This document shows positions 1,218-64,000 of a stretch of DNA of 64,000 nt, in pieces. A model generated the notes under the pieces. The model was given only the letters and a program-made list of their open reading frames with translations. It made no database searches and was not told the DNA's origin. Origin of the DNA: a virus (taxonomy: Duplodnaviria > Caudoviricetes); the IMG/VR virus record IMGVR_UViG_3300021255_000152, positions 1-64,000 of that record; one strand, written 5' to 3'. The translations under genes and the position numbers were made by a program. How positions within the stretch are numbered: position 1 is the stretch's first letter; every line of letters starts with the position of its first letter.

Positions 1218-2318
1218 ATGATCAAATTAGATTATTCTTTAAAAACTCCTGAAGAAAGATTAGAATTAGTTAAAAAGATATTAGAAGAAAATCCACATCC
1301 GAATTCTTCTTACTTAGAAATTTTAGCGAACTACTTAATCTTCTGTATGGAGAAAGAAGAGAAAAAGGAGAAAAAAATTCTCACTGAAAACCGTATGGCG
1401 ACAGTGAATAAAAGAGAAACTTCCTATGAAGGACTTGTATCCCAGTTTGAAAATGGAGAAGATGGTGTTTATAACATCACAAATAATGACAAACACGTAA
1501 TATTCCAACCAAAAATTTCAATAACAAAAAAAGATAGAGAAGATATACCAGAATTATCACAAACAGATGAAGCTATTGCGGCCTGGAGTGAGCGTCTCAA
1601 AAGATGCGAGGGTCGTGATGCATACATCGCCAAAACAGCACAAATAGACGCAAGAAAAGATCAATATATAATTAAACAACATCGTAAGCCTCCTGTTCAA
1701 GCTATGCATTTAGTGCATTCTGAACACCACACAGTTTTACCCGATAATACATGGATTGACGAAGATGGGAATGTAGTTTCAGAAGGAGTGTCCTTAACAA
1801 ATCCTACCGTCTGCTCAATAATTCTATGCAATTATTCTAAGTTGCGCCAGAATTGTTATGGAGACTTTTTTAGTGATACCTGATACCTTATGGAGGAATT
1901 TGATAAAGTTAGTTTGCGCGCATTGCATGACAAGCCTTTATATTACCGCTTAGTAGAATGTAAGATTGATGGTATGCAAAATGTAGAAATACAGGAAGTT
2001 TTAGAAGAAGAATTTGGTATTAAACATAGTCTTGAATATATCTCATCCCTTTGACGCAATAAAATACCTATCTTAATTGCGTCTGCGGCAGAAGATGATT
2101 TTCTTGACTGATATTATTTAAACATTGAAAAAGGTGTTTATAAACGTTGTAGCAGATGCGGTCAAATAAAATTAGCTCATAATAAATATTTTAGTAAAAA
2201 TAAAACAAGCAAAGACGGCTTCTATTCTATTTGTAAGGAATGTCGTAATAAGAAAAAGCCTAAATTTGAAGAAGATGGACAAAACCCCCCAATCTCATTC
2301 TCTAATTCTAAGAAATAG
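1218..2318 (+). CDS. Putative late transcription regulator, 366 aa (HTH-like segment plus C-terminal CxxC...CxxC Zn finger); 3 in-frame TGA=Trp
   Basis: GGAGG RBS. Reading through TGA at 1881, 2052 and 2109 gives ...KIDGMQNVEIQEVLEEEFGIKHSLEYISSLWRNKIP...CSRC...CKEC, ending in TAG. Function inferred from motifs and position. Confidence 0.75.
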
Positions 2319-2335
2319 AAAAGGAGGAATAATTT

Positions 2336-3574
2336 ATGGCTGATGTAAGCAAGAAAGATTTAATATTTTGTGAAAAATGTCATAGAACTTTAAAAAGGTC
2401 AGAATTTTATAAATCAAATAATTTAGAAAAATATCCAAACGGCGGAACTATTCCTATTTGTAAGAAGTGCGCGACAATGCACGTTAATAATTGAGATCCA
2501 TCTACGTTTCTTTGGATTCTTCAAGAAGCTGATGTCCCATATATTCCAAAAGAATGGGATCAGCTTTTAATGTCGTATGGAACAGATAAATCTAAAGTTA
2601 CTGGCTTAACTATTATTGGGCGATATATTGGTAAGATGCATCTTAACCAATATAAAAAGTATCGCTGGAGAGATAGTGAAGCATTGCGCTTAAAAGATGA
2701 AAAAGAACTTACCGAAGCAATGGAACGCCAAGGCAAGAGTCAAACAGAAATAGATGAGGTTCTTGAAGCTAACCGTTTTATAATTCCAGAAGGTGAGCTT
2801 AAGGAACCTGAGACTGCGGTTGCGCCGATGCCTGCGGATAATGGTCCAGAAGCATTTGTATCAATGCCTCTAGGGGGTAATTTTGATGACACTGCGATTT
2901 CTGCAGAAGAGCTTGGATTAACTGAAGATGATGTTCGTTATTTAAAGTTGCGTTGGGGGCGTGCCTATAAGCCAGAAGAATGGATTTATTTGGAACGTTT
3001 TTACCGCAATTTTGAAGAAACATATGATATTCACACAGCAGGTCATAAAGACACTTTAATGAAACTCGCAAAGGTATCTCTTAAACTTGACCAGTTAATC
3101 GACCTCGGAGATATTGAGGGTGCGCAAAAGGCTGAAAAAATGTATGATAGTTTAATGAAGAGTGGCTCTTTTACCGCACATCAAAACAAGGAGGAAGAAA
3201 AACGTGGAATCGATTCTCTTGGAGAAGTTGTTGCTCTTTGCGAATCAAAGGGCTTTATACCTAGATATTACGTTGATAGCCCAAAAGATAAGGTTGATAG
3301 AGTATTGCAAGACTTACAAGAATATACTCGTTCTCTTATTATGGAAGAAACTAATATCGGTGACCTCATTGACAATGCGGTTCGTCAGATTGAGCTAGAA
3401 AAACAAAAAGAAGCTGAAGCTGATTTAGATGGTCAGACAGAAGAAGAGGCTTTAGAAGAATCTCTATTCTCTGAAAATAAGCAATATCTTTCTGATAATG
3501 CTTTTACTGAATTTGGAGAATTTGAAGAAGAGTTAGAAGCAGAGAATGAAAAACTATTCTCAAAAGGAGAATAG
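2336..3574 (+). CDS. Putative terminase small subunit / Zn-binding packaging protein, 412 aa; TGA=Trp at 2492
   Basis: AGGAGG RBS; N-terminal CEKC...CKKC; joins the 2570 ORF in frame; lies directly upstream of TerL. Confidence 0.65.
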
Positions 3575-3576
3575 CT

Positions 3577-5406
3577 ATGTCATTACAAGATATTTTAGAT
3601 CAACACAAACAAGAAGATTTAAATGGCGTATCTCAAACAATTTGAGATTTATTAGATATTAAAAAATCAAGAAAAGTTGGTATATCGCATGAACGTATAG
3701 ACAATATAATTCCTGTAGCTCGAGATTATATAGCATATTGGAGAGAATACCCTGATATGTTTATAGATTTCTTACAAACAGGAATAGATGGGACTATTCC
3801 TGAAACAGGTTTAAGATTCTATTTCTATCAAAGAGTATTCTTGCGTGCGGCGATGCGTTATCGTTATGTTTATGCGGTATTCCCTCGTGCGTATTCTAAA
3901 TCATTCTTGTCAGTATTGACATTAATGTGCAGATGTATTCTTTATCCAAGAGCAAAGTTATTTGTAACTTCTGGTGGTAAGGAACAGTCTGCACAAATTG
4001 TTAAAGAAAAAGTTCAAGAATTATGTACTATGATTCCAGCTCTTGATAGAGAACTTGATCGTCGTTTAGGTAAAACTAGAGAAGGTAAGGACTATGTTAT
4101 TTATATGTTTAAAAACGGTTCTTACTTTGATAATATTGCGGCAAGTGAAAAGTCAAGAGGTAAGCGTCGTCATGGTGGTCTTGTAGAGGAGTGCGTAGGT
4201 GTAGATGGAGATATTCTCCAACAGGTTATTATTCCTACCATGAATATTTCAAGACAGTGTATGGATGGAAGTACGCATAATGAGGAAGTTCTTAATAAAT
4301 CACAGTTGTATATTACTACGGCAGGATTTAAAGGAACTTTCGCATATAATAAATTAATACAGACTTTGGTTCAAATGGTAACTGAACCAGATAAAGCCTT
4401 TGTAATGGGTGGTACATTCAAGATACCAGTTATTGCGGGCTTGCTTGATAAAGATTTTATTACCGACTTAAAGAAAGATGAAACTTTTAATGAAATTTCA
4501 TTCTTACGTGAGTATGAAAGTAAATGGGCTGGTTCTTCTGAAGATGCATTCTTTAAAGGTGAAGCGTTTGATAGAAACCGAGTTCTCCAAAAGCCAGAGT
4601 ATGAAGCATCTGGTCGTGCTAATGTTCAAAGTTATTATGTTCTTGCAATGGATGTTGCGAGAAAGAATACTGGACGAGATGGATGCGATAGCGTAATTTG
4701 TGTATTTAGAGTTGCGCCACAGAGCTATGGTGAAGTTTCATTAAAATATTTAGTAAATATTTATTCTCTTACAAATATGCACTTCGAAGACCAGGCAATT
4801 TGGGCGAAACGTTTGTACTATAAATATGACGCTCGTAAAATTGTAATTGATGCCAACGGTCTTGGTATTGGTCTTGTTGATTACATGGTTAAATCACAGG
4901 TTGATCCTTTAACGGGTGATGAATATCCTGATTTTGGTGTTGATAATGATGAAGAAGGATATTATAAGAGATTTAGAACAAATAATACAGAACAAGATGC
5001 AATGTATTTAATTAAGGCAAATGCGCCACTTAATACAGAAGCACATTCAAATGTTCAAACACAGCTTACTTCTGGAAAGTTAAAATTCCTTATTGATGAT
5101 CGTGCAGCTAAAGTAAAATTGCTTGGAACGCAAAAAGGAAAACAAATGACTCCAGAGGAAAGGTCAGAATACTTAAAACCTTATAATCTAACTTCCATAT
5201 TAAAAGAAGAGATGCTGAATCTTCGTGAGGAAAATGAAGGTGTTAATATTATATTAAAGCAAGCAAATAAATCTATTCGTAAGGATAAATTTTCTGCACT
5301 TGAATATGGATTATACTATATTAAACAATACGAAGATAGCAGACGTAAGAAAAAGAAACGTTTCGTTGCATCAGAATGACGATTCAGTTCCCACATCGGA
5401 GGTTAA
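3577..5406 (+). CDS. terL: Terminase large subunit, 609 aa; TGA=Trp at 3643 and 5377
   Basis: Walker-A-like PRAYSKS, RGKRR plus Walker-B-like GLVEE, ITTAG coupling motif, RNase-H-like LAMDVAR, IDANGLG and KDKFSA. Confidence 0.93.
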
Positions 5407-5776: not shown

Positions 5777-7387
5777 TTGGCCAGTAATAAAGAAAGACAG
5801 GAACAAATTAGAGAAAAAGGTTTTTCTATGAATGGTTCTTCCCAATACGGGAGCATAAAGGTCGGAACAAAAACTCTTGAAGATGCAGTTATTAATTTAG
5901 GAGCTTATCAGAAACTAAAAGATACTTCATGTTTAAGATTTTATGATAAGATAGCGATATTGCGTGCAATTGCGGAAAATGATGTTAAAGCAATTCGCGC
6001 AATATCTGACTTCTTCTATCGTACTAATGGTATCTATCAAAGAATTGTAAATTATTATGCAACAATGTATAGATATGATTGATATACTGTTCCTACTATT
6101 TATGATGATAAAATTCTTAGTAATGAAGAAAAAAGTAAAAAGGTTACTACCGAATGATTCAAAGTAATAGACTATTTGGATAATACAAACATTAGAGAGA
6201 TTACTCAAAATATTACATTTAAAGTTATTAAATATGGCGTATGCTATGGATATATGGTTGAAGGAAAAGATGGTATTCTTTTTCAGGAATTACCAGTAGA
6301 TTATTGTCGTTGTAGATATTATGTAAATAATCTTCCAGCGATAGAATTTAATATGGCATATTTTGATCAAAAATTTCATGATGTTAATTATAGAATGAAA
6401 GTTCTTAAAATGTTTCCAAAAGATATTCAAAAAGGTTATGTTCTTTGGAAAGAGAGAAGATTAACTCCTGATTTTGAGGGAGATACAAGTGGTTGGTATT
6501 TACTTGACCCAGGTAGCGCTGTTAAATTTTCTTTGCCAGGAACTAATGAAATTCCTTTTTTCATTAATGTAATTCCATATTTATTAGATTTAGATGCGGC
6601 ACAAGATTTAGATCATCGTAAGCAATTACAGGATTTATTGAAAATAATTGTCCAAAAGTTGCCTATTGATAAAAATGGTGATTTAATTTTTGATGTAGAT
6701 GAAGCAAGAGATATTCATAACAATACAGTAGCAATGCTTCATCATACCATCAACACAGATGTTATTACAACATTTGCTGATGTTGATTCTATTGATTTAT
6801 CTGATACTACGAATGTAGATAACGATGATTTGGAGCGTGTTGAACGTTCTGTGTATAATGCCGCAGGTGTTTCTAAAAACTTATTTAATTCAGACACGAA
6901 TTTATCTATTAATAATTCTATTTTACAAGATGAAGGCTTGATGCGCAATTTAAAGTTGCAATTCGAGAAATTATTTGATACAATAATTCAGAGAAGAATG
7001 CCTAATAAAAAGAAATATACATTTAGATTTTATATTTTAGATACAACACAATATAATTATAAAGAATTATCAAAAACATACAAAGAACAGATGACTGTTG
7101 GATTTGGTAAGATGCTTGCGCAAATTGCATTAGGTCATACACAAAATTCAATTTTGGCAACAGCATTCTTTGAAAATGATGTATTATCACTTAGCACTGT
7201 TATGATTCCACCAATGATGTCTTCTACAATTGGTAGTGAAGATATTCAAACTTTGGGCAAAGGAGGTAAAACTCAACCTTCTGAAGGTCAAAATACTACA
7301 GGAAGTGATAATAAGGGTGGTAGACCAGCTAAAGAAGCAACAGAACTTTCTGATAAAACCATCCAAAATAAAGAAAGTCAGAAGTAG
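5777..7387 (+). CDS. Portal protein, 536 aa; TGA=Trp at 6080 and 6155
   Basis: AGGAGG RBS with TTG start; two track ORFs join in frame; size and position between TerL and protease fit a portal. Confidence 0.85.
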
Positions 7388-8712: not shown

Positions 8713-9453
8713 ATGGCTAAAACAAGATTAAGTGAAAAAGCCACATATGTCACTCGTGGTTACGGACAAGTTGAACCTAACCATTTATCAGCTCAGAAGA
8801 CAGGTCAGATCTATGCACAGTTACCTGCTGCAGCAAACATTAACATTCTTGAGAATGGTCAGTTTGCTACTTATAACTATGCTGCAGCTGATGGTGGAGC
8901 AGTAGATTTTTCTGGTGCTGGCGAGTGGATGATGGTCTTTAATGAAATTAAGCTTTATCGTGATTTCGAACAGGATTGCGATTTTGCAATGAAGAAAGAA
9001 GATTATGTGGCTCGTGTATATAGCCCAATTGATGGCACTCAGCCATTAACAGAATGGCAGTCTCGTTTCTATGGCCAGTATGCAGGTGTAGATTCTCAGG
9101 GTAATCCTATTCTTAACCCAGAGCGTGTTACAACACCAGCTGACCCATATGAAGTTGATTCTACAGACGATCCATTCAAGACAACTCAGAATTATAAGAC
9201 ACCTAAGTATATGGCAGAAGGAACACGCATGGTTCCTCGTCTCTTTAAGATTAATGTTGGCGATATTTGGACAACAAATACTATTAAAGCAGAACCAGGC
9301 AGCCTCAAAGTTGGTCAGTTCCTTACACCAGATGCAGATGGTTATCTAAAAGTTGGACAGGGTGCAGATGCTCAGCATCCAACAATGGAGATTGTTAAGG
9401 TTTATACAATGCCTGATATGCAACCTGGCGTAAAGGTTATGCGCGTTAAGTAA
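8713..9453 (+). CDS. Putative capsid decoration/cement protein
   Basis: Intact 246-aa ORF between scaffold and MCP; codon bias typical of highly expressed genes; no TGA. Confidence 0.65.
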   Translation: MAKTRLSEKATYVTRGYGQVEPNHLSAQKTGQIYAQLPAAANINILENGQFATYNYAAADGGAVDFSGAGEWMMVFNEIKLYRDFEQDCDFAMKKEDYVARVYSPIDGTQPLTEWQSRFYGQYAGVDSQGNPILNPERVTTPADPYEVDSTDDPFKTTQNYKTPKYMAEGTRMVPRLFKINVGDIWTTNTIKAEPGSLKVGQFLTPDADGYLKVGQGADAQHPTMEIVKVYTMPDMQPGVKVMRVK

Positions 9454-9471
9454 TAGAAAGGAGTAAAGGAC

Positions 9472-10584
9472 ATGTTAGATAAGAAGAATTTCGTACAATT
9501 AGCTAAGATTGTTGCTAAAGCTGATCCTAAGGCTCCTCAGGCGTATAGCTACAACGGCGCTAATTTTAATTATGCTGAACTCAATGAAACACTTCGTAAA
9601 GAGTTCAATGAAATTGCTGGTACATACCAGTTATATCGTGAAAACAAGAATTTAGTATTCTCTATTATTGAAGAAACATTAAATGACGTTCTTCCACAGA
9701 AGGTCATTGAAAACTACGGTCAGTTTGCTGAAGTTAAGACTTTCGCACAGGGCGATAAGCCATTGTTCCGTAGAAAGATTGATGGCACAAATCGTGCTAA
9801 GCAGTTCATTACAAGAGTAGGACTTGCTGGTGATTATGAAGTATTCAAGCTCGCTAAGAGTTCTGAAAGCTTCGAAGTACCAACTAGTGCTATCGGTGGA
9901 GCTGCACAGATCGGATTCGAGGAATTCCTTGATGGTCGTGCTGACTTCGCAGAACTTACAAATATCGTAATGGAAGGTATGGATGACCTCGTTTATGAGG
10001 AAATCGGTAAGGCTCTTGAGGGTGCTATTAATCAGCTTCCAGCTATGAACCGCGTTGTTACAAATACATTCGATCCTGCATCTTTCGATGAACTCGTTCG
10101 TATGGCTGAATCTTATGGTAATGTAACAATCTACTGCACAAACGAATTTGCAGTTAAGATGATTCCACAAGAAGCTTGGAGATACACAGAAGCTATGAAG
10201 GATGAACTTTACAGAACAGGTCGTCTTTCTGGTTATCGTGATAAGAATGTTGTTATTCTTCCAAATGCTTACAAGGATATCATTTCTGGTAAGGAAAAAG
10301 TTATTGATCCTTCTTTCTGCTGGATTATTCCATCTGGCGCAGATACAAAGCCTGTTAAGGTCGCTTTCGAAGGTGACACACTTGTTGATGAGCGTGCTAA
10401 CCGCGACTGGAGTCGTGAAATCCAGGTTTATAAGAAGGTTGGCGTAACTTGCATGATGAACAATGCAATTTGCGTTTATAAGGATACATCTCTTTCTAAG
10501 AATGGTGCATTCAACCTTGCTGATACCGTTCAGAATATTGTTCATGTAGTTGATGATTCTCAATCCGGTAAAGAAGGGGACTAG
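9472..10584 (+). CDS. Major capsid protein
   Basis: 370 aa, strong RBS, synteny, strong codon bias, no TGA. Confidence 0.85.
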   Translation: MLDKKNFVQLAKIVAKADPKAPQAYSYNGANFNYAELNETLRKEFNEIAGTYQLYRENKNLVFSIIEETLNDVLPQKVIENYGQFAEVKTFAQGDKPLFRRKIDGTNRAKQFITRVGLAGDYEVFKLAKSSESFEVPTSAIGGAAQIGFEEFLDGRADFAELTNIVMEGMDDLVYEEIGKALEGAINQLPAMNRVVTNTFDPASFDELVRMAESYGNVTIYCTNEFAVKMIPQEAWRYTEAMKDELYRTGRLSGYRDKNVVILPNAYKDIISGKEKVIDPSFCWIIPSGADTKPVKVAFEGDTLVDERANRDWSREIQVYKKVGVTCMMNNAICVYKDTSLSKNGAFNLADTVQNIVHVVDDSQSGKEGD

Positions 10585-10979
10585 TGACGGCAACCGCCAG
10601 TAAGTTGGCCACTCTTCCATCTTGGGACGCACATTATGCAGACATGCAGACCAATAATGGGGCGGTTGGAGTCGAACAAAGTGGTAACACTGTTGCGCTT
10701 AGCTTTGACGATGATGCATTAGTTACATTCCCATCTTCAAATGCGGCACAGGGTGAGCATAAATGGGTTGGTCTCGATATTGCTACTAACTTAGACAGTA
10801 TCGTAGGTGCAACTTGGAATGGTTCTGAGTTAACTCAGGCAGATGCGGATGAAGCAGCAGGCGTAGGTCTTGCGGCAGGTCACATCGTATTCTGGATTAA
10901 AGCAGACGCATTACCTGTTTCTGTAACTATTGGAGCAGAAGGTAAAGAGGCTGCAACATTGACATTCCAAAAAGCTTAA
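10584..10979 (+). CDS. Small beta-rich virion protein, possibly a frameshift extension of the MCP
   Basis: GTG overlaps the MCP stop (TAGTG) in the -1 frame; followed by a terminator. Confidence 0.7.
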   Translation: MTATASKLATLPSWDAHYADMQTNNGAVGVEQSGNTVALSFDDDALVTFPSSNAAQGEHKWVGLDIATNLDSIVGATWNGSELTQADADEAAGVGLAAGHIVFWIKADALPVSVTIGAEGKEAATLTFQKA

Positions 10980-10994
10980 TTAAATACTTTAAAG

Positions 10995-11034
10995 AATAAG
11001 GGGAGTAGGGGTAAATCCCCTCTCCCCTTATTTT
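10995..11034 (+). terminator. Intrinsic terminator after the capsid genes
   Basis: AATAAGGGGAG-T-AGGGG / CCCCT-CTCCCCTTATT hairpin followed by T residues. Confidence 0.8.
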
Positions 11035-11066
11035 CATTAATAAGAGAAAAAGGAGATAATATTAAA

Positions 11067-11636
11067 ATGGCAAAGAATGATAGTGTAATTGTAGCAAATC
11101 GTACTGCGGCAAAAGTTGTTTATAATATTCCAGATAGGGGTATTCGTAGAGAATTGGCGCCAGGACAGTCAATTAGAACTACAAAAGATGAAATTGAAGC
11201 ATTATCTTATGTAAGTGGAGGCTTAGATCTCATTAGAAACCACCTCTTGGTAAAAGATGAAGAGATTCTCAATGATTTAAATATCGACAGAGAACCTGAA
11301 TATTATATGAATGCTAATGATGTTCTTAATCTTTTAAAGAATGGAACTCTTGATGAATTCCTTGATGCATTAGATTTTGCTCCAGAAGGTGTCATTACGT
11401 TAATTAAAGATCTTAGTGTTGAGCTTCCTTTGAATGACTATGCAAAACGTCAGGCTCTTAAGGAAAAGACTGGCTTTAATGTAGATGCGGCTATTGCTAA
11501 TTATCAAGCAAATAATGCTCCAGAAACAGATGAACCAGCAGCTCCTGTACAGCCTAAGAGAGTTCGTAGAACACAGCCTAAGACTAAAAAGGCGGATGCT
11601 ACACCTGTAAAAGTAATTAAAAAGACTGCTGAATAA
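11067..11636 (+). CDS. Hypothetical head-module protein
   Basis: 189-aa ORF with AGGAG RBS and a Lys/Pro-rich tail. Confidence 0.75.
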   Translation: MAKNDSVIVANRTAAKVVYNIPDRGIRRELAPGQSIRTTKDEIEALSYVSGGLDLIRNHLLVKDEEILNDLNIDREPEYYMNANDVLNLLKNGTLDEFLDALDFAPEGVITLIKDLSVELPLNDYAKRQALKEKTGFNVDAAIANYQANNAPETDEPAAPVQPKRVRRTQPKTKKADATPVKVIKKTAE

Positions 11637-12247: not shown

Positions 12248-12530
12248 TTTTGATATACCTGATGAAAGTTGTCAATCTGACGTAAATCGACTAACAAATC
12301 AATTATGAAAGCTTATCCCAATGCGTGAAAATGAAGAGAATTGATTGGAGCAGTTAAATACCGTAATTATAGAGATTGCGGGACTTGGAGAAATTTTTAA
12401 TAAAAGTGATAAATTCTTAATTCTTTTAAGCAAGTTAGAAGGATTGAGAGTCACCGAAGTTGCTTTCTCTACATATAGAAAAACTGTGTTTGAATCAATT
12501 TCCTTATTAAGAGAGGTTATGTATGGCTAG
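12219..12530 (+). CDS. Hypothetical protein (~100 aa; start at 12219 or 12228); 2 TGA=Trp
   Basis: ...RLTNQLWKLIPMRENEENWLEQL... extends the 12345 track ORF upstream. Confidence 0.65.
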
Positions 12531-13509
12531 TTCTCAATATCATGGAATTAGTATGATGGCGAAAAGGCTCGATTGGCGAGGAGGTTTTCCTCAACAAGAT
12601 AGAATGATCAAAGATAAAAGATGAACTTTGGATCATGCAGTAAAATATTCTTATCAAGCAGCAAAGATAAGACATACAGATTCTGAAAATTTAACCGAAG
12701 CGCCTTCTTTAATAAATCCAGATAAAACAAAACAAAATTATGATGATAAGATTGTTTCTGTTGGATATGAATATGGATTTCAACCAGGAGACGTTTTTGA
12801 TTGGCTGAATACGGGTACAAAGTGAATTATTTATCTTCAAGATTTAACAGAATTGGCTTATTTTAGAGGAGAAATAAGACGATGCAATTATCAGGTTTCT
12901 TGAAAGGGTGAAGATGGTACAATATATACACAACATCTTGCGGTTCGAGGACCTGTTGAAACAAAAATTAATTTTATTCAAAAGAATGGTATTAGTGTAG
13001 ATGAACCTAACCATTCTTTAGATATTTTAATGACAAAAACCCCAGAAGCATTACAATATTTTCAACGTTATGCAAAATTTTATTTAAAAGGCATTGAACG
13101 TGCTGATAAGAAAATTTGCTGAAGAGTTGAAGCCGTTGATACTATTAGTATGCCTGGCATTATTCAAGTTGTTGCTGTAGAATACTATGCTAATGAAACT
13201 AAGGATGATATTGTTGATGGAGTAGCTAATGGTTTAGTATTAGATCCAGTAGATCCAAATGAAGAAGATGGAATTAATGATATCATTGAAGGTCCTACTT
13301 TTATTAAACCTAGAGTTGAGTATAGTTATTTCTATAGAAAGAGACAGGAATCTGCGCGTTGGTCTCTTGTAACGAAAAACAGTCCTGCGGAGGTTGTTAA
13401 GATTGATGGTCATAGAATGACCGTTAGATGGAACAGTTCTTATCATGGACAGTTTGAAATTGCTTGTAATGGTTACAAGAAAACTATCGTGGTAGAATCT
13501 TTATTTTAA
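12523..13509 (+). CDS. Putative head-closure/neck protein, 328 aa; 4 TGA=Trp
   Basis: GAGG RBS; joins the 12628 and 13150 fragments in frame; GDVFDW...KWIIY; synteny. Confidence 0.65.
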
Positions 13510-46900: not shown

Positions 46901-46995
46901 AGTACGGAGCTTCTGGCTCTACACAATATACTTTTGCAGAGATGGTTGCTAAATTAAATGATTTAGAAGCTAGACTCGCGGCCTTAGAAAGTTAA
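40975..46995 (+). CDS. Large tail fibre-like protein, ~2006 aa; several TGA=Trp
   Basis: Four large fragments in one frame; D..GH repeats, Thr-rich shaft and C-terminal coiled coil (LEARLAALES). Confidence 0.75.
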
Positions 46996-46996
46996 T

Positions 46997-47030
46997 ATAA
47001 GGGAGAAGATTTTCTTCTCCCTTATTATTT
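46997..47030 (+). terminator. Intrinsic terminator
   Basis: ATAAGGGAGAAGA/TCTTCTCCCTTAT hairpin with a T-rich tail. Confidence 0.75.
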
Positions 47031-47031
47031 A

Positions 47032-47077
47032 GGGCAAGAGTTAAAAAAATACAAATGTTGTTTTTTAGATAGAATAG
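47032..47077 (+). promoter_or_regulatory. Candidate phage late promoter motif
   Basis: GGGCA-N10-A-N17-TTA-N7-TAG directly after a terminator. Confidence 0.55.
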
Positions 47078-47096
47078 AGTAAAGGAGGAACGGACA

Positions 47097-47840: not shown

Positions 47841-47858
47841 TCGAAAGGAGATGTGATT

Positions 47859-49670: not shown

Positions 49671-49675
49671 TTAGA

Positions 49676-49721
49676 GGACAGAAATCATTAAACAAGAGTG
49701 AATATCTTTCAAAATAGTTAG
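49676..49721 (+). promoter_or_regulatory. Candidate phage late promoter motif
   Basis: GGACA-N10-A-N17-TCA-N7-TAG in an intergenic region. Confidence 0.55.
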
Positions 49722-49733
49722 AAGATATTAAGG

Positions 49734-49769
49734 TAGGAGAGAAGAAATATCTTCTCTCCTATTTTTTTT
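49734..49769 (+). terminator. Terminator/attenuator hairpin in the leader of the giant gene
   Basis: TAGGAGAGAAGA/TCTTCTCTCCTA plus T8. Confidence 0.8.
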
Positions 49770-49796
49770 ATATGAAAAAGGAGAAAGGAGAAAAGT

Positions 49797-52700: not shown

Positions 52701-55700
52701 TTGAAGATTGACTTTATGGAATCTTCTGGAACTTATAACATGGGTTTTGCTAACCTTGTTAAGAATGCTTATACTCACCATCCTTTATATGATTATTATC
52801 AAAAGGGTGCTATTATGAAAGCTGATACTGAATATAAAGTATCTACTGAATATAAAGAAGGCACAACTTACTGGTATAAGAACCATAAAGGAAATATGAA
52901 AAACACTGTCGATGATGAATTAAAGATTCAGACAGCAGAAGACTATGCTATGGGTCCTGTTGCTTTTGCGCAGTCTATTGGACAAACAAAGGTTTTAACA
53001 GATCCAGCAGTTGAAGGTTATAATACTTGGTATGAAGCTACAACTGTATATAGTACAGCTCCTACTCCAGATTACCTTGATGATTACAGAACATCTGTAC
53101 AAGGTTTCCCTGTATTAACATTCCATCGTAAGACAGATGCAAACGGTAACGTTACAGGTATCAGCTATATCGGAAGATATAACATGTTACTTGATAAAGG
53201 TTCTGATGAAGCATATGGTTTTAAACCAATTGATGAAGTTTATCAGAAATTCGTTACAAAGAAGAATAAACCTGTTAAAGTTAGTAAGGTTGCAGAGTGC
53301 TGAGAAGCTGAGAACAACTCTCGTGGTTTCTGCTCATTCCGTGACGCTTCTACTAATAGAACAGATGATAAGTTCTTCGACACAGGTGCATTAACTGTAC
53401 ATGGCGCACCTATTGTTGCTGACTACTGGGAATATCGTTATCATAGTTGCGCTGATTCATTAGATATCCTTTATGAATTAGATGCAAATATTTCTGACGA
53501 AGATTCCATCGCTACAGTAGCAGATGAACTTGGAGTAGATATCCAGGATTCTACAGCAATTCCATCTCCAGATTCAAATTATAAGGGAACTTATACTCAG
53601 GGTATGAAGAATGCTGGCGATGCTTTATTAAAGACTTACTCTAACTGGGAAAGAGCAGTAAGATGGGTTTATAGTACAGACCAAGATGCTGTTCCTTCTA
53701 TGGGTGTTTATTCTAAAGTAGATTTAGGTTTAGAAGCATATGTGCCAAATCTTTATTACATCTTAAATAGTGATAGTGAATATGAATTAGATACTAGCGA
53801 AACATATGATCCACTTCTCACATATTATAAAGCATCTGGAGAAGAATATACTCCTATTAAGCTCTGCGCAGATAGTAGTTTGATTTATCAGCCAAATACT
53901 TACTACATTCCTTCTACATTAAAAGAAGGTGAGTATGTATTAGACCCTGAAACTGCATTTAATCCAAACTATACATATTACAACCTTACTGCAAATGAAG
54001 CAGAAAGTGGCGCAGTTGCACTTCCAGAGCCAGTTACATATAATGGACACGTATATTCATACGATACAAAAGAATATAGAAATGCTAAATTCACAAACGA
54101 TTTAAGCAAACACTTTAATCTTGAGTATCTCGTTACTTACTTCGTAATGACTGAAGTCTTCGAGTGCTATGACTCTCGTGGTAAGAACGCGATGTTCGCT
54201 TCTTGGGGTCCTCAGGAAGAAGGCGGAGATTATATTTGGTATCCAATATTCTACGATATTGATACTCAGTTAGGTATTAATAACACAGGTATTCCTTCTT
54301 TCGAATACTACGTAGATGCAACTGAAAATGGTACTTTCTCTACTAACGATAGCTTGCTATGGAATAACTTATATAAGAACTTCCGTGGTTTAATTATCCA
54401 AAAGTATAGACAGTTAAGAGGTACTAACTCCACATATCAGAGCTTAAAGTACGCTCCATTACAGACAGTAGATAGAATTGAAAGCTGGTATCTTGCAGAT
54501 CCAGAAGCTACTGGTAGTATGGTAATGAGAGGTGAAAAACCTTTAATCGCTCTTAACCTTGATGAATACTATAAGTACATTACTATTACTAATCCATTAA
54601 TGGGTTATCAGGATAGAAATGGCGGAACTGGTATTGATAATGGTACTTACTTCTACGCACTTCAGGGTGATAGAAGCTTATCAAGACAGCAGTTCTTAAT
54701 TAACCGTTTCAATTACATTGACTCTTGGTTAAATCAGGGTAACTACGAACGTGGTGGTACAAACATTATTCGTGGTCGTATCGCCGCAAACAGTCCTTCA
54801 AATACATCCGATAAATGGATTGAAGGTGAAACTATTAACACTGAACCAACACTTAATACAAATGTTCCTTACTGGAAAGATGCTGCCGAAACTCAAAAGA
54901 CACACCTTTTTGATGGTGAATATTGGATTAACATGGAGCCTGTTAGAAACTCTTATGTTACTGTTGGTACAGATACAGCAAACTTCCCATCTTTGAAATA
55001 TACAAACCTTGATGGTCCAGTTAAGTTCGTAACTCCAGACTTAGAGAACGGTGTTCGTAAGAGTGGTGGATATCACGAACAGCTCTACTATATCTATGGA
55101 CTTGACCAAATGAAGAGTCTTGGCGATATGAGTAGATTATATTGGACTGAATTTAATATTGAAGGTTCTGCTACAAAGATGACTGACTTATTACTTGGTT
55201 ATGACGGCTTGGATGAAGAAGGCAATTTCTATCTTAACGATAGAATCAATATGTACGGTATTCATGCAAGCAGCTCCGCAAGTGATAAGGGAGGTATGCC
55301 ACTCTTAAAGAGAGTAAATCTTTCCTATGTTAGATTCAATGATGAAGCTCCTACATATAATTTCACAAGCTGTGAAAAACTTGAAGACTTTAGAGCTATT
55401 GGTTCTAACATTACAAATGTTTCCTTCGCAAATGGTGTTGCTTTAAATACACTCTATCTCCCAGAGACAATCAAGAGATTAGACTTAACTGAAGCAACAA
55501 AACTTAATAACATTGTAACACAGTACATTCCTCGTAATGATGCTGCAGGCATTGATGTTACACGCGGATTATATATTCCTAATTTAACAGATAAGGCCGA
55601 TAACGAAGCTACTTCTCAAATTGAAACAATTAGTCTCATTGGAGATTGCTTAGGTTATGATAGTTATAAGTTATTAAGAAAATACTATAACGCACGTATG

Positions 55701-57641
55701 GGTGCGGCAATGTCTTATATTACAATGACAGATGTAAGATGGACTCCATATAAGCAATTAGATGAAGGAACTCCTTACAATGTTGATGATAATAATGCTC
55801 ATTTATATTGGGTAGATGATGGTCACTTCGGACTTAAAGAATATGTTCATGAGAACTATGATACTTGAACATTATTAATTAAGAATGGAGAACTTTACAG
55901 ACTTAATACTCAATTAGATGGCTCTACTATTAAATCTACAGATTTATTGATGCAGTTAAAGAACGCAAGTAATTTCAGAAGTGCTGCTGCTACAAGCACA
56001 CCAGTTCCTGTTATTACTGGTATCATCTACGTTGATAATGATACTCCTATCAACGAAAGAGATATTGAAGCTAACCTAGTTTCTGCTTACCCAGACTTGA
56101 AATTCTTCTTCAAGCAGGTTGAACAGGTTCCTGCTGCTAAATATATTATCCTCAATGATGATGGTACTTACGATACTCTCGTAAGAAGAACATTAGCCGC
56201 AAATGAGACATTCTTCCCTAATCCTCTAACTCTCGTTTCTTCTAGAGAATTAGATAGATATGAAACTCGCTTAAAGTACGACTTCTATGGTTGGGGTACA
56301 GTTCCACTAAGTCCTGCTGGAGTAGAAAACCTCAGAGACGATAACTGGTTTAAAGAAGAAAAAGGTAATCTTGTTGTAACAACAGATAACCCTGAATCTC
56401 CTGCCTTAACTTCCGACATGTGGTATAATAATTGAGATTCACTTTCTATTCAAGAAGGTGTAAATGATTACGTATTCTATGCTGTCTTTGGTGTGCATAA
56501 GTACATCATGACATTTAAGAATGGCGATAATACTACAGATGCTGGTATCTTGAAGATCGAAGCTGAAAGTCCAGTTCCATATCCAAAGACAATTGTTCCT
56601 TCTAAATCTGAAAAAGATTTACCTTTCGATCAGACATATTACTTCACAGGTATATGGAGATTAGAAAATGGAACAGAGTTGAAGGATGGAGTATTTAAGT
56701 CTCAAAGAAATCTTACTTTCTATCCTGAGTTTGCAACAAGAGACGTTCATTCCGCTCCAACAAACTTAGACTACTTTGAATTTAAGACATACGAATACTT
56801 GGATGGTAGTCCTAACTTTAGTACAAACTTTGCGATTCCTCAGTATGTAAGTGGTTCAACATATAACGTAAATGGTGTTTCAATTGGTATTAAACCTGGA
56901 GTTACTCTAAGTGGAAAGGTTACACTTCCTACTTATGATCCAAATGGAAGACCTGTTGTAGCATTTGATGCAAGCTGAAGTATTCCGGGCCTTACTCAGA
57001 AGCCATTACCTCAAGGCTGTGTAGGCGGACAAAACATTACACATATTTTCTGGTATCATACAGATGGTAAGGATCCAATGCTCAGAATTATTCCTGAATA
57101 CACATTTGCTGGTTCAACAGATGACAAAATGAACTTGCAGTATTTTGAATTCCCATCTTCATTACGTGTAGTTAATCACTATGCATTCTATCGTGCTCAA
57201 TCATTAACTGATATTAATCTTAGAGATGCTAACAATCTTTTATGGATTGGTAATAACGCATTTAGATTATCCACAGGTAGTACCGAAGAAGAAATTTTAA
57301 ATATGGGAGATATTTACATCCCAAGCTCTGTTGCTTCCATTGGTGCGCAAGCATTTGCCGCAATTAATGGTAACTATGGAACTGTTCAATTTGGTACTGC
57401 TCCTACTGGTTCTCGCTTATGTAGATTAGGAGAGTTAGATTTTACTGCTCAAGATGTAACAGTAACAATATTCTCTTCTATTGGAAACATTGGCGTATTT
57501 AGATTCTATGCTTCTTCAACCGCCCAAAAGAATGCTATGATGAAATTTGTTAATGATACTGGTGATGCTTTCCAGACATTCTCAATGTTTGAAAGAGCCG
57601 GAACAAAAGAGTATCTTGATGCAGGAAATCTTTCAAGTTAA
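49797..57641 (+). CDS. Giant virion-associated protein, ~2614 aa: LamG/ConA-like, CotH-kinase-like and leucine-rich repeat (BspA/LRR_5-like) regions; 4 TGA=Trp
   Basis: Five fragments in one frame; motifs SIYLNG...FKIRIYN, QGTSS..YPRRNYK, KIDFMESSG, DSRGKN, WYPIFYDIDT, IPSSVASIGAQAF. Confidence 0.8.
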
Positions 57642-57654
57642 AGGAGAATAAAAT

Positions 57655-57870
57655 ATGATTAAGACACCAATTTATACTTATTTAGGTACAAATGGAACTC
57701 TTACTACTCCAATTCATCTTGAGGGTATTTATGCTGTCGTAAAGTATCAGCTTGATGCAGAAGGAGATAAGTTCTTAACAAAGGATAATAAATCTTATGT
57801 TAAGACAGTTCTTTGTCCTGAAAGTGAAGTTGCCCTTTGGAAAGAAGTTTCCAAAAAGGCCAAAATATAA
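57655..57870 (+). CDS. Small hypothetical protein
   Basis: 71 aa, AAGGAG RBS. Confidence 0.7.
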   Translation: MIKTPIYTYLGTNGTLTTPIHLEGIYAVVKYQLDAEGDKFLTKDNKSYVKTVLCPESEVALWKEVSKKAKI

Positions 57871-57903
57871 CAATAAAACTTAATATAAAATTAAGTATAA
57901 TAG
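57858..57903 (+). promoter_or_regulatory. Candidate phage late promoter motif
   Basis: GGCCA-N10-A-N17-TTA-N7-TAG. Confidence 0.5.
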
Positions 57904-57906
57904 TTA

Positions 57907-57940
57907 AGGGGAAGGGAAACCCCCTTCCCCTATTTTTTTT
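57907..57940 (+). terminator. Terminator-like hairpin
   Basis: AGGGGAAGGG/CCCTTCCCCT plus T8. Confidence 0.8.
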
Positions 57941-57962
57941 CAAAAGTTAGGAGGAAACATAA

Positions 57963-60467
57963 ATGATCACTTATATTGACAGTGAAAATAAACAAGACTA
58001 TACCGTGTTGTTTAATAAAGCCTCTGCAAAACTAGGATTAATTCCAATTATAAAAGAAACTCTTAATCCTACTACTCTTAAAACAGAAATCACTTATCAA
58101 AAGAGTGTTTTCAAGAATGAGAAGTGGGAAGTTGTTGATTGCGAAGTCAAGAAAGACGAGCAGGGTAATCCAGTAAGAGATTCTGAAGGAAATTTAATTC
58201 AGCTCGAAGTTGATGCCGATGGTAATCTCTTAGAGCTTGAAAGAAATGGTGCCGGTGAAATTGTACTTGACACACAGGGAAATCCTACTGTTTTAAGAAC
58301 AATTCGTGGTATCGCAAGCTTAAACGAATATTTCCAACACATTGTTGAATTAGCTGGTTTAGCTATTGGCGAAGGCCGTTCAGGTTCTGATCCATATTTC
58401 TTAAGAGTTCCTCTTGATGAACCTTTCTTTGAAATTAATGCAAATACTCGTGGAATTACAGTTCCAGGAGAATTGAGTCAGGTAGGTATCATAGGCGATA
58501 AACTTGCTGAAGTAGTATTCTTCAGAATTGATAGATACTTTGATGCCGTTGATTTAAACACAAGAGATATTTATATTGAGTGGGAACTTCCTGACGGAAC
58601 AAAGGGTATCTCAAGAGATTATCTTCGTGATGTTCAATCCGAAAAAGATAAGATTATCTTCGGTTGGGTAATTGGTGACGAATTAACTCAGCAAGTTGGT
58701 ACAATCCGCTTCGCTGTTAGATTTGTTGAATGGCTTGATAAGAATTATAAAGTTAATGAAAGTACAGGCGAAAGAGAACAGATTGATGAAGCTATTACTG
58801 GAACAGAGTTACTTTATAGCTTTAGCTCTTTACCTGCAACAATTTCTGTTTCTGATAGCTTACATTATTCTTTATTTGAAGATGATGAAGCTTTAGAGAT
58901 TTATTCCAGACAGACAGAACAGAACGTTGGTACAATTTCTCTCTATCTTGAACCATCTCTTCCAGATAGCACAGATCAGACAGCTCCTATTCCAGCAGAT
59001 ACACCTAGATTCATTAGAGACTTGAATAAGACTTACTATCCTACTGCTACTGCCGCTTCCGCAGATAAGAGTTTTGACTTCATTATTAATTTAATTGATG
59101 AAAAGCTTGATCTTGATGTTGAAGCAGTTGCTGAAGATGGTGGCGCAATTAGCTACATCTTCGGTAGAAGAGAACACTCTGAAGATGAAGGTACAGGTGT
59201 TAAGCCTACTGGAACAGTTGGTCTTGTAGCGAAGACTTCTTTTGTTGCTTGGACAAAGCAGGCGATTTTAGCAGGTGCTGTAGATCAGCATGGCAAGCTT
59301 GATAGAACATTCTACAAGAAGTTAGAAAATCAGACTTATGAAGTTGTAAGTCAGGTTTATATTGAAGATAGTGATGATGACACTGTTTTCTATGAAAAGG
59401 TTGCTAAGACAGTTATTGACAAACCTGGTCATTACTATGCTATTGCAACAAATAGAGCTGGTGGTAAGAAACCTACTAAGGCATATAGTTCTACATTCTA
59501 TGTTCCTTGGGCAGCTAAACCTACTGCAACAAAGCAAATGCCTTCTAGATTCATTCCTAAAGAAGATGTTTATACTATCGCTGCAAACCCAGAAATTCCT
59601 GAATCTAACGTAGGTGAATATCAGAATCAAACTAACGTTCGTGCAACTAAGACAGCTGTACATAATAATGTTACAGTTACACTTGCACCAGAGGTTAGCG
59701 TAGATAATGATATCAATGTTCCAAACTTAACATATCAGTGGTATAGAAACCCTAATAACCACTTACAGAGTTTATCTACATTCCATCCAGAAGCTTACAC
59801 AAGACCTACTGATGGAGCTAATAAAGTAACAGATGATGTTTGGGCAGCAACAGAAGCAGCTCTTATTACTAGAGATGGTTGGACACCTATTGAGGGCGCA
59901 ACTAATGCAACATATACTACAAATGAACCTGGATGCTATGCAGTAAAGATCACTAACTCTTATAATAATAGTAGCAAAGCTACTAACTTATTAGATGCTG
60001 GCGTATGCCGTGTTACTAATATGCCTAGTGTTCCTACTGTAGATTGGGATAAGTTCATTTCTGATGCAACAGATCATGGTACTATTGATACTGAAATTGG
60101 TATCAGCCTCAATAAGCATATTTCTGAAAGAGCAGATGGTGAAGAACCAACTCCTATTGATTACGATGAGATTAAGTATATCTGGCACAAGATTACTCTT
60201 GCTAAAGATATGCCTGAAGGCTCTGAAGAAAATGCATATCTCTATGATACAGAATATGCTACAGATGCCGACATTGAGCGCCCACAGGGAATCTTAACAT
60301 TCAATGATGGCCTTACTGATAAGATTCCTTTTGGTTTTAAGAAAACTGGAAACTACTATCTTGAACTTCAGATTACATTAAATGGTGCAACACGTATCAT
60401 TAACTATGGACAGAAGGAAGATACACCAAACGGTGGAATAGTAATTGGTATTACTAGCGGAAACTAA
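57963..60467 (+). CDS. Baseplate upper (BppU-N-like) protein with Ig-like C-terminal domains
   Basis: 834 aa; GDKLAEVVFFRIDRYFD..DL...GTIRFAVRF; LTYQWY...IEGATNATY...GCYAV Ig-like motif; no TGA. Confidence 0.7.
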   Translation: MITYIDSENKQDYTVLFNKASAKLGLIPIIKETLNPTTLKTEITYQKSVFKNEKWEVVDCEVKKDEQGNPVRDSEGNLIQLEVDADGNLLELERNGAGEIVLDTQGNPTVLRTIRGIASLNEYFQHIVELAGLAIGEGRSGSDPYFLRVPLDEPFFEINANTRGITVPGELSQVGIIGDKLAEVVFFRIDRYFDAVDLNTRDIYIEWELPDGTKGISRDYLRDVQSEKDKIIFGWVIGDELTQQVGTIRFAVRFVEWLDKNYKVNESTGEREQIDEAITGTELLYSFSSLPATISVSDSLHYSLFEDDEALEIYSRQTEQNVGTISLYLEPSLPDSTDQTAPIPADTPRFIRDLNKTYYPTATAASADKSFDFIINLIDEKLDLDVEAVAEDGGAISYIFGRREHSEDEGTGVKPTGTVGLVAKTSFVAWTKQAILAGAVDQHGKLDRTFYKKLENQTYEVVSQVYIEDSDDDTVFYEKVAKTVIDKPGHYYAIATNRAGGKKPTKAYSSTFYVPWAAKPTATKQMPSRFIPKEDVYTIAANPEIPESNVGEYQNQTNVRATKTAVHNNVTVTLAPEVSVDNDINVPNLTYQWYRNPNNHLQSLSTFHPEAYTRPTDGANKVTDDVWAATEAALITRDGWTPIEGATNATYTTNEPGCYAVKITNSYNNSSKATNLLDAGVCRVTNMPSVPTVDWDKFISDATDHGTIDTEIGISLNKHISERADGEEPTPIDYDEIKYIWHKITLAKDMPEGSEENAYLYDTEYATDADIERPQGILTFNDGLTDKIPFGFKKTGNYYLELQITLNGATRIINYGQKEDTPNGGIVIGITSGN

Positions 60468-60481
60468 AGGAGGTATAAGAG

Positions 60482-61189: not shown

Positions 61190-61194
61190 AAACT

Positions 61195-61269: not shown

Positions 61270-61282
61270 AGAAAGAAATTTT

Positions 61283-61314
61283 GTTATGCTCTATATGTGA
61301 GCATAACTTTTTTT
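61283..61314 (+). terminator. Second terminator-like hairpin in the leader
   Basis: GTTATGCTC/GAGCATAAC plus T7. Confidence 0.7.
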
Positions 61315-61337
61315 ATATTAAGGAGAAAGGAGCAAGT

Positions 61338-64000
61338 ATGGCAGATACTAATGTTTTAATAAAATTAAAATATGGTGCGATATCTACTTTAGCGCAAAGA
61401 GAAGAACTAACAAATAATCCTCTTATTGCGCTAGATAGAGGTACTGTATATTTTGCTGTCGATACTACCAATCGTAAAGGTAAGATAGTTTTTGATGCTC
61501 CTGTTGGTGCTAGTGGTACAGAAAGAATCGTAATGAGTACCGATGCTGAATACGCAGAAAGGGCTGGTTATGCAACCAACGCAGGAAATGCATCAACCGC
61601 CGATTTAGCGAATGAACTTGTTGGCGCAAATATTGATGGTATATTCTTTAACGGTGCAAATGCTATTACACATTATTCTTCTTGTGCTACAGCTGGAAAT
61701 GTTGCAGAGAAAGTTGTTAGTTGCGGGAATTATAGACTAACAACAGGCTCTAGAATTGCTGTTAAATTTGGATTTGAAAATAGCGCCAACAACATGTCGT
61801 TAAATGTTAATAACACAGGAGCAAAACCTGTTTATTATAATGGCGCGCAAATTGAAGCAAATAAAATATTGGCTAATAAAGTCTATGATTTTATATATGA
61901 TGGAAATGTATATAATTTAGTAGGAGATTTAGATACTAATACTACCTATCCTGTTGCGGAGACAGGTGTTACTGGATTATTATCTGGAGATCTTTATACT
62001 AAATTACAAGGTATAGACTTTGACGCCACTTATCTTACACTACAAGGAACTTCTCCTATTTCAGTAAGTGATTCAGTAGGAGATGTTACAATTAGCCATG
62101 ATGATACTGATGTAAATGCAGGTAATTATGGAGATACTGAAGCGCAAACACCGGGATTCGGAGACACTTTTAAAGTTCCTAGTTACACAGTAAATAGTAT
62201 GGGTCACTTAACTCAAAGTGGAGAACATACTGTTACAATTCCAAATGATTTAGTTTCTATTTATACTCCTGGTTTATTTGGATCTACAGATTATAATAAT
62301 TTCTTGGACGGTATTACCATTGCTGGACATAATTTACAGTTAGGTAGTGTTGAATGGACTGCAGCTGAAGTTAGACAAGCATTGGGACTCTCTAATGCCC
62401 TTCATTTTATTGGTAAAGCTACTGCGACTATTTCAGATGGTAGTACCACTGATCCAGGTATCACTGGATATACTACAAAACAAGCTGGTGATGTAGTTAT
62501 AGATGCAGATACCTCATATGAATTTGTATGAACAAATGAAGGCAAGTGGGAAAGATTAGGCCCAGATGGAAGTTATTCTTTATCCACTCATGGTCATGGT
62601 AATATCACCAATGAAGGTGGCTTGCTTGGTGGAATTATTGGTTCTTCTGTTGTTATAGATTCAAATGGTTTAATTAATTATAGAGATTTAACCGTTCTTG
62701 ATCCAGACCCAGATGGAACTAATTCTATTACATTTATTGCGCAAATTGAACAAAACGCAGATGGACAGATCGTTCCTATTAAAAAGATTGTTCGAGATGC
62801 ATCTACTTTAGTAAGTGGCGTTGTTAATACAACTGCACAGAGTTTCGCAGGACATAAAACATTTGCTACTAATTTATCTGTTATTAATGATGCTAGTAAT
62901 GAATCTACAACAGATTCCTTGGTATATTTCCAAGTTCATAATTCAAATGATTGAGGTTTAACTATCTCCAAAGGCGGAAATAATAAAGGCTTACTCATTG
63001 ATGGTGTAGGTAGTAAATTATTACAGGTCGGCACGGATGAATTACTTGTTGTTAATTCTTCTGGTCTTACTGTTGGTACCGCTACTAAGAATGTTAATTC
63101 TACATTTGCAGGTGATATAAATCCAGTAGCTGATCAAGCCTTTAGTTTAGGCTCTTCTGGATTAAGATGAACCAACTTATATGTAGGTACTAGTGATACC
63201 TATGGTTCTGCAACCAAACCTATTTACTGAAAAGATGGTGTCCCAACAGCAACTTCTTATTCACTCGCCGCAACCGTAAATGCTGGCGTAGTAAATAGAC
63301 TTGCTTTCTATAAATCTTCAAGGTCAGTCGATGATGCTGTTGGTGCAAATTTTGAAACTACTCAAAATTCAAAAAGTAAAGAAGTTCGTGCTTTACATCT
63401 TTGAGGAACAACTGTCGGTAATACAGCAGCCGATTTAATTAGTGGAACTGCTGGTATTATTAGAATGGGCGATGGCGGTCCGCAAATTACTTTTAGTGCC
63501 TCTGAATCTGGCACACAAAATGGCGCACTTATTTTTACAGACAACGATAATGCGGGAAGTGGCGTAAGCTGGCATTTTGTCACTACAGAAGGTGATGATG
63601 ACTTTGGTGGAAACGCTACTGTTACTGCGCCAAGATTTAGAGCAAGAAAAAATTTAACCGTTGGTACAAATAATGAACAGACAGCTTATAGTCTTTATGT
63701 AGAAAATGAATCTTATCTTCATGGAGATTTAACAGTTGATGGTAGTCAAACTATTACTGGAACTTTTGAATCTACCAATGAAACCAATTCTACATCACGC
63801 ACTACTGGTTCTGCTATCTTTGCAGGCGGTGTAGGCGTTGCAAAAGAATTATGGGCTGGTGGAATTGGTGTTAGCACTAATTCAATGGTAATTAATAAAG
63901 GTAAGGTATATTCAAACCTTACTGGCACAAATGTAGCTCCGCCTATTAAAACAACTTCTTTATATGCTGATGGTATTGCTATAATTAGTCCTTCAGTTAG
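61338..64000 (+). CDS. Tail fibre / receptor-binding protein (3'-truncated by the window edge); at least 5 TGA=Trp
   Basis: AAGGAG RBS; frame open to the window end; fibre motifs C.TA..VAEKVV, LGSSGLRWTNLY, YGSATKPIYWKDGVP, STSRTTGSAIFAGGVGVAK. Confidence 0.8.

Follow-up and report, generated by a model that had tools for sequence, protein, structure and literature searches.

UGA as a tryptophan codon in the late genes of a large ruminant-gut siphovirus, and the phage tRNA(UCA) that probably decodes it

How does a phage complete its virion proteins when the genes for its terminase, portal and tail are broken repeatedly by TGA, a stop codon in the standard code? The question is raised by the stretch of DNA analysed here (the ‘window’), bases 1–64,000 of the IMG/VR record IMGVR_UViG_3300021255_000152, which is a single virus contig of 138,028 bp. 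IMG/VR classes the contig as linear, and CheckV estimates it to be 79% complete; it is AT-rich (34% GC), and the phage comes from ruminant-gut metagenomes. The window covers the late half of a large phage of the siphovirus type, which is distantly related to the Enterococcus EF1/VRE9, phiCD211 and SPbeta-like phages. The answer that we regard as highly probable is that the late genes read UGA as tryptophan (Trp) by means of a phage-encoded tRNA with the anticodon UCA, in a Bacillota host that itself uses the standard code, with a switch of code between early and late genes. A first-pass annotation of the window had assigned genetic code table 4 (TGA = Trp) to the phage. This holds for the late, tail, lysis and accessory genes, and fails for the genome as a whole, in which the early block is free of TGA.

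The case begins with the reading frames. Under the standard bacterial code (table 11), the plus strand of the window breaks into 62 open reading frames (ORFs) of at least 100 amino acids (aa). When TGA is read as sense these fuse into long frames, restoring the large terminase (TerL), the portal, a tape measure of 2720 aa and several giant tail proteins. Coding density of the window, computed greedily, rises from 0.813 with table 11 to 0.974 with TGA as sense, the highest of the readings compared (sense TAG gives 0.866, and sense TAA 0.894). In-frame TGAs number 124 in the window, counting plus-strand genes of at least 100 aa, and 232 across the contig. Over the whole contig, the joined frames contain no in-frame TAA or TAG, and every one of them terminates in TAA or TAG, as the first-pass annotation had claimed for the 30 or so genes that it traced when it joined fragments across TGA only. 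The tape-measure frame is instructive: over 8.2 kb it holds 26 TGAs and not one TAA or TAG, codons that make up several per cent of the triplets off-frame, so a frame open by chance is excluded. Of 99 genes, 68 are preceded by a ribosome-binding site of the GGAGG type (8.6% for random positions), and such sites stand before most of the restored starts. Independent assemblies with 92–98% identity retain the TGAs.

Not every label attached earlier to the restored genes survives. PHROG matches bear out TerL, the portal and the tape measure, while no gene matches a protease family in Pfam or PHROG (the gene at 7399–8694 matches PHROGs of unknown function only). All six motifs quoted as having Trp at the TGA were found with TGA (asterisk) at the position claimed: YMTAI*NNF (nucleotide, nt, 18953), TGGYTGA*G (nt 26060), YRYD*Y (nt 6080), AEC*EAENN (nt 53301), LGSSGLR*TNLY (nt 63168) and KPIY*KDG (nt 63228). 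The last two lie in what had been called a CBM5/12-like module. That name finds no backing, as Pfam returns no match for 61281–63998, yet its two TGAs do face Trp, in five of five and five of six relatives, respectively.

Which amino acid UGA specifies was read from homologs. We assembled a set of 107 related loci (L001–L107) out of IMG/VR and GenBank, took the codon opposite each window TGA from tblastn alignments, and sorted the loci by the in-frame stops inside their aligned genes. One lineage proves to hold all three codes: 23 loci use TGA as sense, 51 use TAG and 29 use neither, with four unclear. Against the TGA-using clade (474 alignment cells), a window TGA faces TGA in 52% and TGG in 23%, and a window TGG faces TGA in 18%. 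Conversely, in-frame TGAs of the relatives face a window TGA in 52% and a window TGG in 28%. Against the TAG-recoded and standard-code relatives (1227 cells), Trp is the leading residue at 43%, followed by Tyr (8%), Ile, Gln, Glu and Phe (4%); Gly falls outside the top 12, and the leading residues do not include Cys. Taken site by site, Trp is the majority residue at 24 of 55 sites, and Gly or Cys at none. The pattern persists at greater distance. In cultured standard-code Bacillota phages, together with phAss-1, Trp occupies 21 of 95 cells, against a background of 0.9%, and Gly and Cys none. Composition gives a further measure. TGG alone accounts for 0.74% of late-gene codons and 1.37% of early-gene codons; when TGA is counted as Trp the late figure becomes 1.46%, and the Trp content of late genes matches that of early ones. 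Together with the Trp identity elements of the phage tRNA(UCA), described below, these comparisons bear out the earlier assignment of TGA to Trp, and, judged from sequence, UGA behaves in these genes as a sense codon for Trp.

Individual genes illustrate the point. The large terminase (3577–5406, plus strand, as are the genes that follow; phrog_15503, phrog_24618 and phrog_5909) has TGAs at nt 3643 and 5377; the clade relatives have TGA 12 times and TGG five times at its residue 601. The portal (5777–7387; phrog_2739, 2e-80) has TGAs at nt 6080 and 6155. At its residue 102, TGG occurs in 14 clade relatives and TGA in three, and Trp in five of 10 other relatives. In the structural gene at 12523–13509 (phrog_31155), three of the four TGAs, at residues 101, 127 and 200, face Trp in five of five, four of five and three of four relatives without sense TGA, the class of relatives to which the next counts also refer. 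Behind the tape measure (18206–26368; phrog_4211, 4.5e-68, and phrog_34405), with its 26 TGAs to nine TGGs, come tail proteins of 1603 aa (26480–31291; 13 TGAs, from codon counts and homolog columns), 1818 aa (31716–37172; 24 TGAs; phrog_30026) and 1125 aa (37190–40567; 18 TGAs; phrog_32343). Residue 293 of the 1818-aa protein is Trp in 20 of 21 relatives, and residues 139, 528 and 969 of the 1125-aa protein are Trp in 38 of 38, 41 of 41 and 68 of 70. Further on are a giant ORF of 2006 aa (40975–46995; five TGAs and 21 TGGs), across whose TGAs relatives align, and a gene at 47097–47840, whose TGA is Trp in 60 of 63 relatives. A giant protein of 2614 aa follows (49797–57641; four TGAs and 37 TGGs; phrog_14959), with BspA-type leucine-rich repeats near its C-terminus (Pfam LRR_5) and full-length homologs in 76 IMG/VR loci. 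The homolog alignment runs uninterrupted over its residues 1–2549, TGAs included, and all 72 relatives without sense TGA that align there have Trp opposite the TGA at nt 53301. An 834-aa protein (57963–60467) has 11 TGGs and no TGA (binomial p = 1e-3 against the late-gene mean). The gene containing the two TGAs at nt 63168 and 63228 begins at 61281, runs to the end of the window at 64000 and extends to 65216 of the contig; it specifies a tail or receptor-binding protein of 1311 aa and has 12 TGAs.

The TGAs are not spread over the whole contig. They lie in the plus-strand block at 1.2–83 kb and in a cluster of minus-strand accessory genes at 72–78 kb, which a YcaO gene adjoins (contig 70,042–77,836). 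The early/replication block occupies the minus strand from approximately 84.7 to 137.7 kb (53 kb), and its identifiable genes have 186 TGGs and no TGA. It has 45 ORFs of 100 aa or more, which stop at TAA (36) or TAG (nine), never at TGA. Among ORFs called with table 11, 44 of 71 in the late block seemingly end in TGA, and none of the 45 in the early block. Early genes, in other words, read identically under both codes, and late genes are cut short under the standard one. Within the early block we also note three small candidate ORFs, with four to seven TGAs each, at 112,449–113,024 (plus), 116,405–117,034 (minus) and 118,590–119,111 (minus); PHROG searches gave no match for them. Recoded homing endonucleases have been described in early genes of the ‘Agate’ phages (Borges et al., bioRxiv 10.1101/2021.08.26.457843).

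Even among late genes, TGA use is uneven (chi-square 75.8, 14 degrees of freedom, p = 2e-10). The tape measure has TGA for 26 of its 35 Trp codons, whereas the head genes at 8713–11636 and the gene at 14859–15923 have none, and the three very large genes at 40975–60467 (2006, 2614 and 834 aa) have it for nine of 78, far below their neighbours. The TGA-free head module comprises four plus-strand genes, identified from PHROG and codon counts, at 8713–9453, 9472–10584 (phrog_4088, at the capsid position), 10584–10979 and 11067–11636; the gene at 14859–15923, also plus, is a virion structural protein (phrog_2729). Most structural genes have no Pfam match.

A decoder is present. At the far end of the contig, ARAGORN finds 23 tRNAs and a transfer-messenger RNA (tmRNA); separately, it finds a tRNA(UCA) at contig 82,481–82,552 (plus), outside the window. 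The endolysin gene lies approximately 1.1 kb upstream of this tRNA, whose score on Rfam's tRNA model is 62 bits. The tRNA(UCA) has the ordinary type I cloverleaf form, 72 nt long (acceptor stem 7 bp, variable loop 4 nt), and it carries A1:U72, G5:C68, G73, C35 and A36, the full bacterial Trp identity set. From the structure of the Escherichia coli tryptophanyl-tRNA synthetase (TrpRS) with its tRNA, the major elements are G73, C35 and A36, and the minor ones A1:U72 and G5:C68; bacterial TrpRS need not discriminate C34 from U34 (PMC12135181). Its closest counterpart among the phage's own tRNAs is tRNA-Trp(CCA), and in a Clostridia metagenome-assembled genome (MAG) its best full-length match is again that genome's tRNA-Trp(CCA). 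With these identity elements in place, the host TrpRS should charge tRNA(UCA) with Trp, an expectation that we consider well founded. The earlier suggestion that the rest of the genome be searched for decoding factors was thus rewarded in part: the tRNA is there, and profile searches of the 138-kb contig for release factors (RF-1 and PCRF) and TrpRS (tRNA-synt_1b) gave no match.

Several features surround the decoder. A near-consensus promoter of the sigma-70 type, TTGACT-18-TATAAT, occurs by pattern match at contig 81,818–81,847 (plus), ahead of a pair of TGA-free ORFs (one of them with a weak likeness to Hsp20) and of tRNA(UCA); at 83,261–83,292 there is a strong bidirectional terminator. 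The tmRNA is at contig 132,745–133,054 (minus), outside the window (Rfam, 74 bits), and its tag peptide ends ...QLALAL. One might speculate that it handles ribosomes that have run past UGA stops of the host after the suppressor becomes active. Among the TGA-recoded relatives, a 176-kb contig (G001) has a tmRNA with a similar tag (L123, 259–608) and a tRNA(UCA) at L112, 1271–1539, that is interrupted in its anticodon loop by an intron of approximately 178 nt. Its 5' half ends ...GGTCTTCAA and its 3' half restarts ...CACCAT; ARAGORN calls it only with the intron option, and Rfam finds no intron family within it. A 178-kb contig (G003) has a 95-nt tRNA(UCA) (L118, 1446–1540, minus) with a long variable arm, a 7-bp acceptor stem and G73, an architecture unlike that of the Trp-like tRNA here. 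The 19 aligned in-frame TGAs of this relative all face TGA or TGG in the window. A third relative (G002) has no tRNA(UCA) among its 22 tRNAs.

From these elements a course of infection can be proposed. Virion, tail, lysis and some accessory genes use UGA as a Trp codon, and the early and replication genes are code-neutral, with Trp as TGG only and TAA or TAG as the only stops. Early in infection the standard code of the host would apply, and any late message translated then would terminate at its first UGA. Host TrpRS would charge the phage tRNA(UCA) with Trp. As this tRNA accumulated, and release factor 2 (RF2) was out-competed or neutralised by some factor, full-length late proteins would be made. 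The charging step, the timing and the standard-code Bacillota host are the parts of this account that we infer.

The host itself is probably a walled, standard-code bacterium of the Bacillota. The endolysin (78,891–81,368) combines a GH25 muramidase with CW_7 wall-binding repeats, and for this reason suggests a host with a peptidoglycan wall of the Gram-positive type. Cultured phages matching the portal infect Bacillota only. In a scan of prokaryote genomes, related phage contigs were found binned in two ruminant Bacillota/Clostridia MAGs and in one Treponema MAG, and both of the former encode full-length RF2 (prfB). The first-pass annotation had suggested a standard-code Bacillota host on promoter and ribosome-binding-site style. 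Indirect support for this comes from the TGA-free early genes, the wall-directed endolysin, the strong Shine–Dalgarno sites, the Bacillota hosts of the cultured relatives, and the prfB genes of the MAGs.

Some observations weigh against this picture, or leave room in it. At 31 of the 55 TGA sites the relatives show no Trp majority; such columns fit recently arisen codons at variable positions, though Trp at every site is not thereby proven. Binning into MAGs is weak evidence of host, and one related contig sits in the Treponema bin. Nothing found explains how RF2 is out-competed at 26 UGAs in a single gene; with the contig 79% complete, a gene of the RF1 or TrpRS type could lie in the missing part. 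As for the proposed timing of tRNA expression, finally, the promoter upstream of the tRNA is a consensus match only.

The difficulty with RF2 leads to an extension of the proposal. The tRNA alone may not suffice: recoding could work as a timed gate on translation, perhaps with an RF2 antagonist encoded by the phage among the unassigned early genes. The reason for invoking an antagonist is that 26 UGAs demand near-complete suppression at each site (0.9^26 = 6%), and RF1 and TrpRS genes are absent from the contig. We hold this only tentatively and would sooner bet against it; if true, UGA recoding would be controlled by more than the tRNA. Parts of such a gate could include the tmRNA, the gene-specific use of TGA (absent from head genes, and more than 70% of Trp codons in the tape measure) and a sigma-like gene with three UGAs. 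The last is the first gene of the late block (1158–2318, plus; phrog_5767 ‘sigma factor’, 9e-46; the true start is possibly downstream of 1158). Its TGAs, at residues 242, 299 and 318, are TGA or TGG throughout the TGA clade. They lie in its C-terminal third, before an HNH/zinc-finger-like end, so that the full-length product would depend on suppression. Because the UCA tRNAs of relatives differ, one by an intron and another by a long variable arm, the decoder seems to be regulated or repeatedly replaced.

Improbable, to our minds, is a host that itself uses code 4, akin to the Mycoplasmatales or Entomoplasmatales, whose code the phage would simply share, with no switch during infection. Code 4 is known in Mycoplasma and Spiroplasma, relatives of the Bacillota (see also bioRxiv 10.1101/2021.08.26.457843), and the low GC content of the phage would suit such a host. 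It would, however, predict TGA throughout, and the 53-kb early block, with its 186 TGGs, has essentially none. Nor does it fit that the phage carries its own tRNA(UCA) alongside a tRNA-Trp(CCA), that its endolysin is directed at peptidoglycan when Mollicutes have no wall, or that the MAGs with related contigs encode RF2.

That UGA stands for another amino acid can be set aside almost with certainty. Phages with code 25, in which TGA is Gly as in Absconditabacteria, Gracilibacteria and their phages, do exist (bioRxiv 10.1101/2021.08.26.457843), and ARAGORN labels the tRNA ‘SeC’, a name given from the anticodon alone. The homolog columns described above answer for Gly and Cys alike, neither of which is a site majority anywhere or found against the cultured relatives (Gly in none of 95 cells). 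The tRNA speaks against Gly, too. Bacterial tRNA-Gly has U73 and G1:C72, and tRNA(UCA) has G73 and A1:U72. Selenocysteine is countered by the 72-nt type I fold, which lacks the 8-bp acceptor stem and the long variable arm of tRNA-Sec, and by the count of more than 230 sites per genome, incompatible with SECIS-dependent insertion. Equally negligible is the notion that nothing is reassigned and the TGAs are true stops, in a decayed or mis-assembled genome or with ordinary low-level readthrough: the basis is admittedly one metagenomic contig, but its frames are interrupted by TGA only and never by TAA or TAG, the TGAs recur in independent assemblies and swap freely with TGG among relatives, homologs such as that of the 2614-aa protein align straight across them, and low-level readthrough could not produce a protein with 26 UGAs.

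For annotation the consequence is direct: the standard code mis-calls about half of the late genes as fragments, and table 4 is needed to call them correctly. A FolD-like gene (methylene-tetrahydrofolate dehydrogenase/cyclohydrolase; Pfam PF02882, 9e-34, and PF00763, 1e-22) lies at 3–866 (minus), truncated by the contig start and outside the recoded block. It has no TGA, an auxiliary metabolic gene of the TGA-free class. The genome as a whole is a clean case of block-wise dual coding, in which a code-neutral early block stands beside a recoded late one and the decoder tRNA can be identified. Its lineage, with TGA-recoded, TAG-recoded and standard-code members, is a good system in which to ask how often, and how, phage codes change.

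How does this phage compare with known ones? A 15-kb portion searched by megablast against GenBank phages gave no match, that is, no close DNA relative there. At the protein level the portal matches, at 25–28% identity, those of Enterococcus EF1/VRE9, phiCD211, Sundance, the SPbeta-like phages, the Lactococcus 949 group and Bacillus phages. EF1/VRE9, phiCD211, Brevibacillus Sundance and the SPbeta-like phages have genomes of 120–140 kb and Bacillota hosts, and share the structural module, at 25–37% protein identity. The common order of PHROGs (TerL, portal, 34215, 35301, 4088, 31155, 2729 and tape measure) matches that of Enterococcus phage VRE9_3. These phages differ from the present one in using the standard code, with no in-frame stops in the aligned genes. 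Closer in habit is phAss-1, of the proposed Phassvirus (OQ749652; PMC10607447), which belongs to the same wider lineage (portal identity 35%, gene order in common) and resembles our phage in size (approximately 136 kb), in its very long tape measure, suppressor tRNAs and recoded late genes, and in its suggested Clostridia host. It comes from the human gut, however, and recodes TAG instead (code 15), with 70 in-frame TAGs in the aligned genes. In the TAG-recoded loci of our set, the window residue opposite an in-frame TAG is most often Gln. The copy of NCBI taxonomy searched lists a ‘Caudoviricetes code 15 clade’, and no code-4 clade. In a FastTree phylogeny of the 2614-aa protein, approximate because it was built on a query-anchored alignment and midpoint-rooted, the TGA clade forms one small branch amid others that are TAG-recoded or use the standard code.

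Beyond this lineage, crAss-like and Lak phages also recode late genes block-wise, carry suppressor tRNAs and keep their early genes compatible with the standard code; they are other phage lineages, with Bacteroidota hosts, and mostly turn TAG to Gln. In Mycoplasmatales and Entomoplasmatales, a tRNA-Trp(UCA) with kinship to tRNA-Trp(CCA) likewise reads UGA as Trp, but in those bacteria the cell's own code is changed throughout the genome and RF2 is missing, whereas here the change is phage-borne, confined to one gene block and set, probably, in a host that contains RF2. The nearest precedents are the recoded phages of human and animal guts described by Borges et al. (bioRxiv 10.1101/2021.08.26.457843), with TGA-to-Trp or TAG-to-Gln changes; the first-pass annotation, too, had noted TGA-to-Trp recoding in some gut phages. 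In these, structural and lysis genes are recoded and replication genes use the standard code. Suppressor tRNAs occur in 35–40% of the genomes, the recoded stop has been lost from standard-code relatives, codes 11, 15 and 4 are mixed within clades, and the hosts predicted for them belong to gut phyla with the standard code (Firmicutes or Bacteroidetes). The code switch described here is real, but it is of this published kind and adds no principle to it. The phage matches most closely the Agate clade, TGA-recoded genomes of approximately 127 kb from cattle, pig and tortoise. The two are alike in TGA as Trp, in recoded late and lysis genes beside standard-code replication genes, in a suppressor tRNA, in loss of the TGA stop, in the mixture of code 4, code 15 and the standard code within one clade, in a predicted standard-code host, and in size and gut source. 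The likeness is one of described features, and the TGA clade here sits as a minor branch within a group of relatives that mostly recode TAG.

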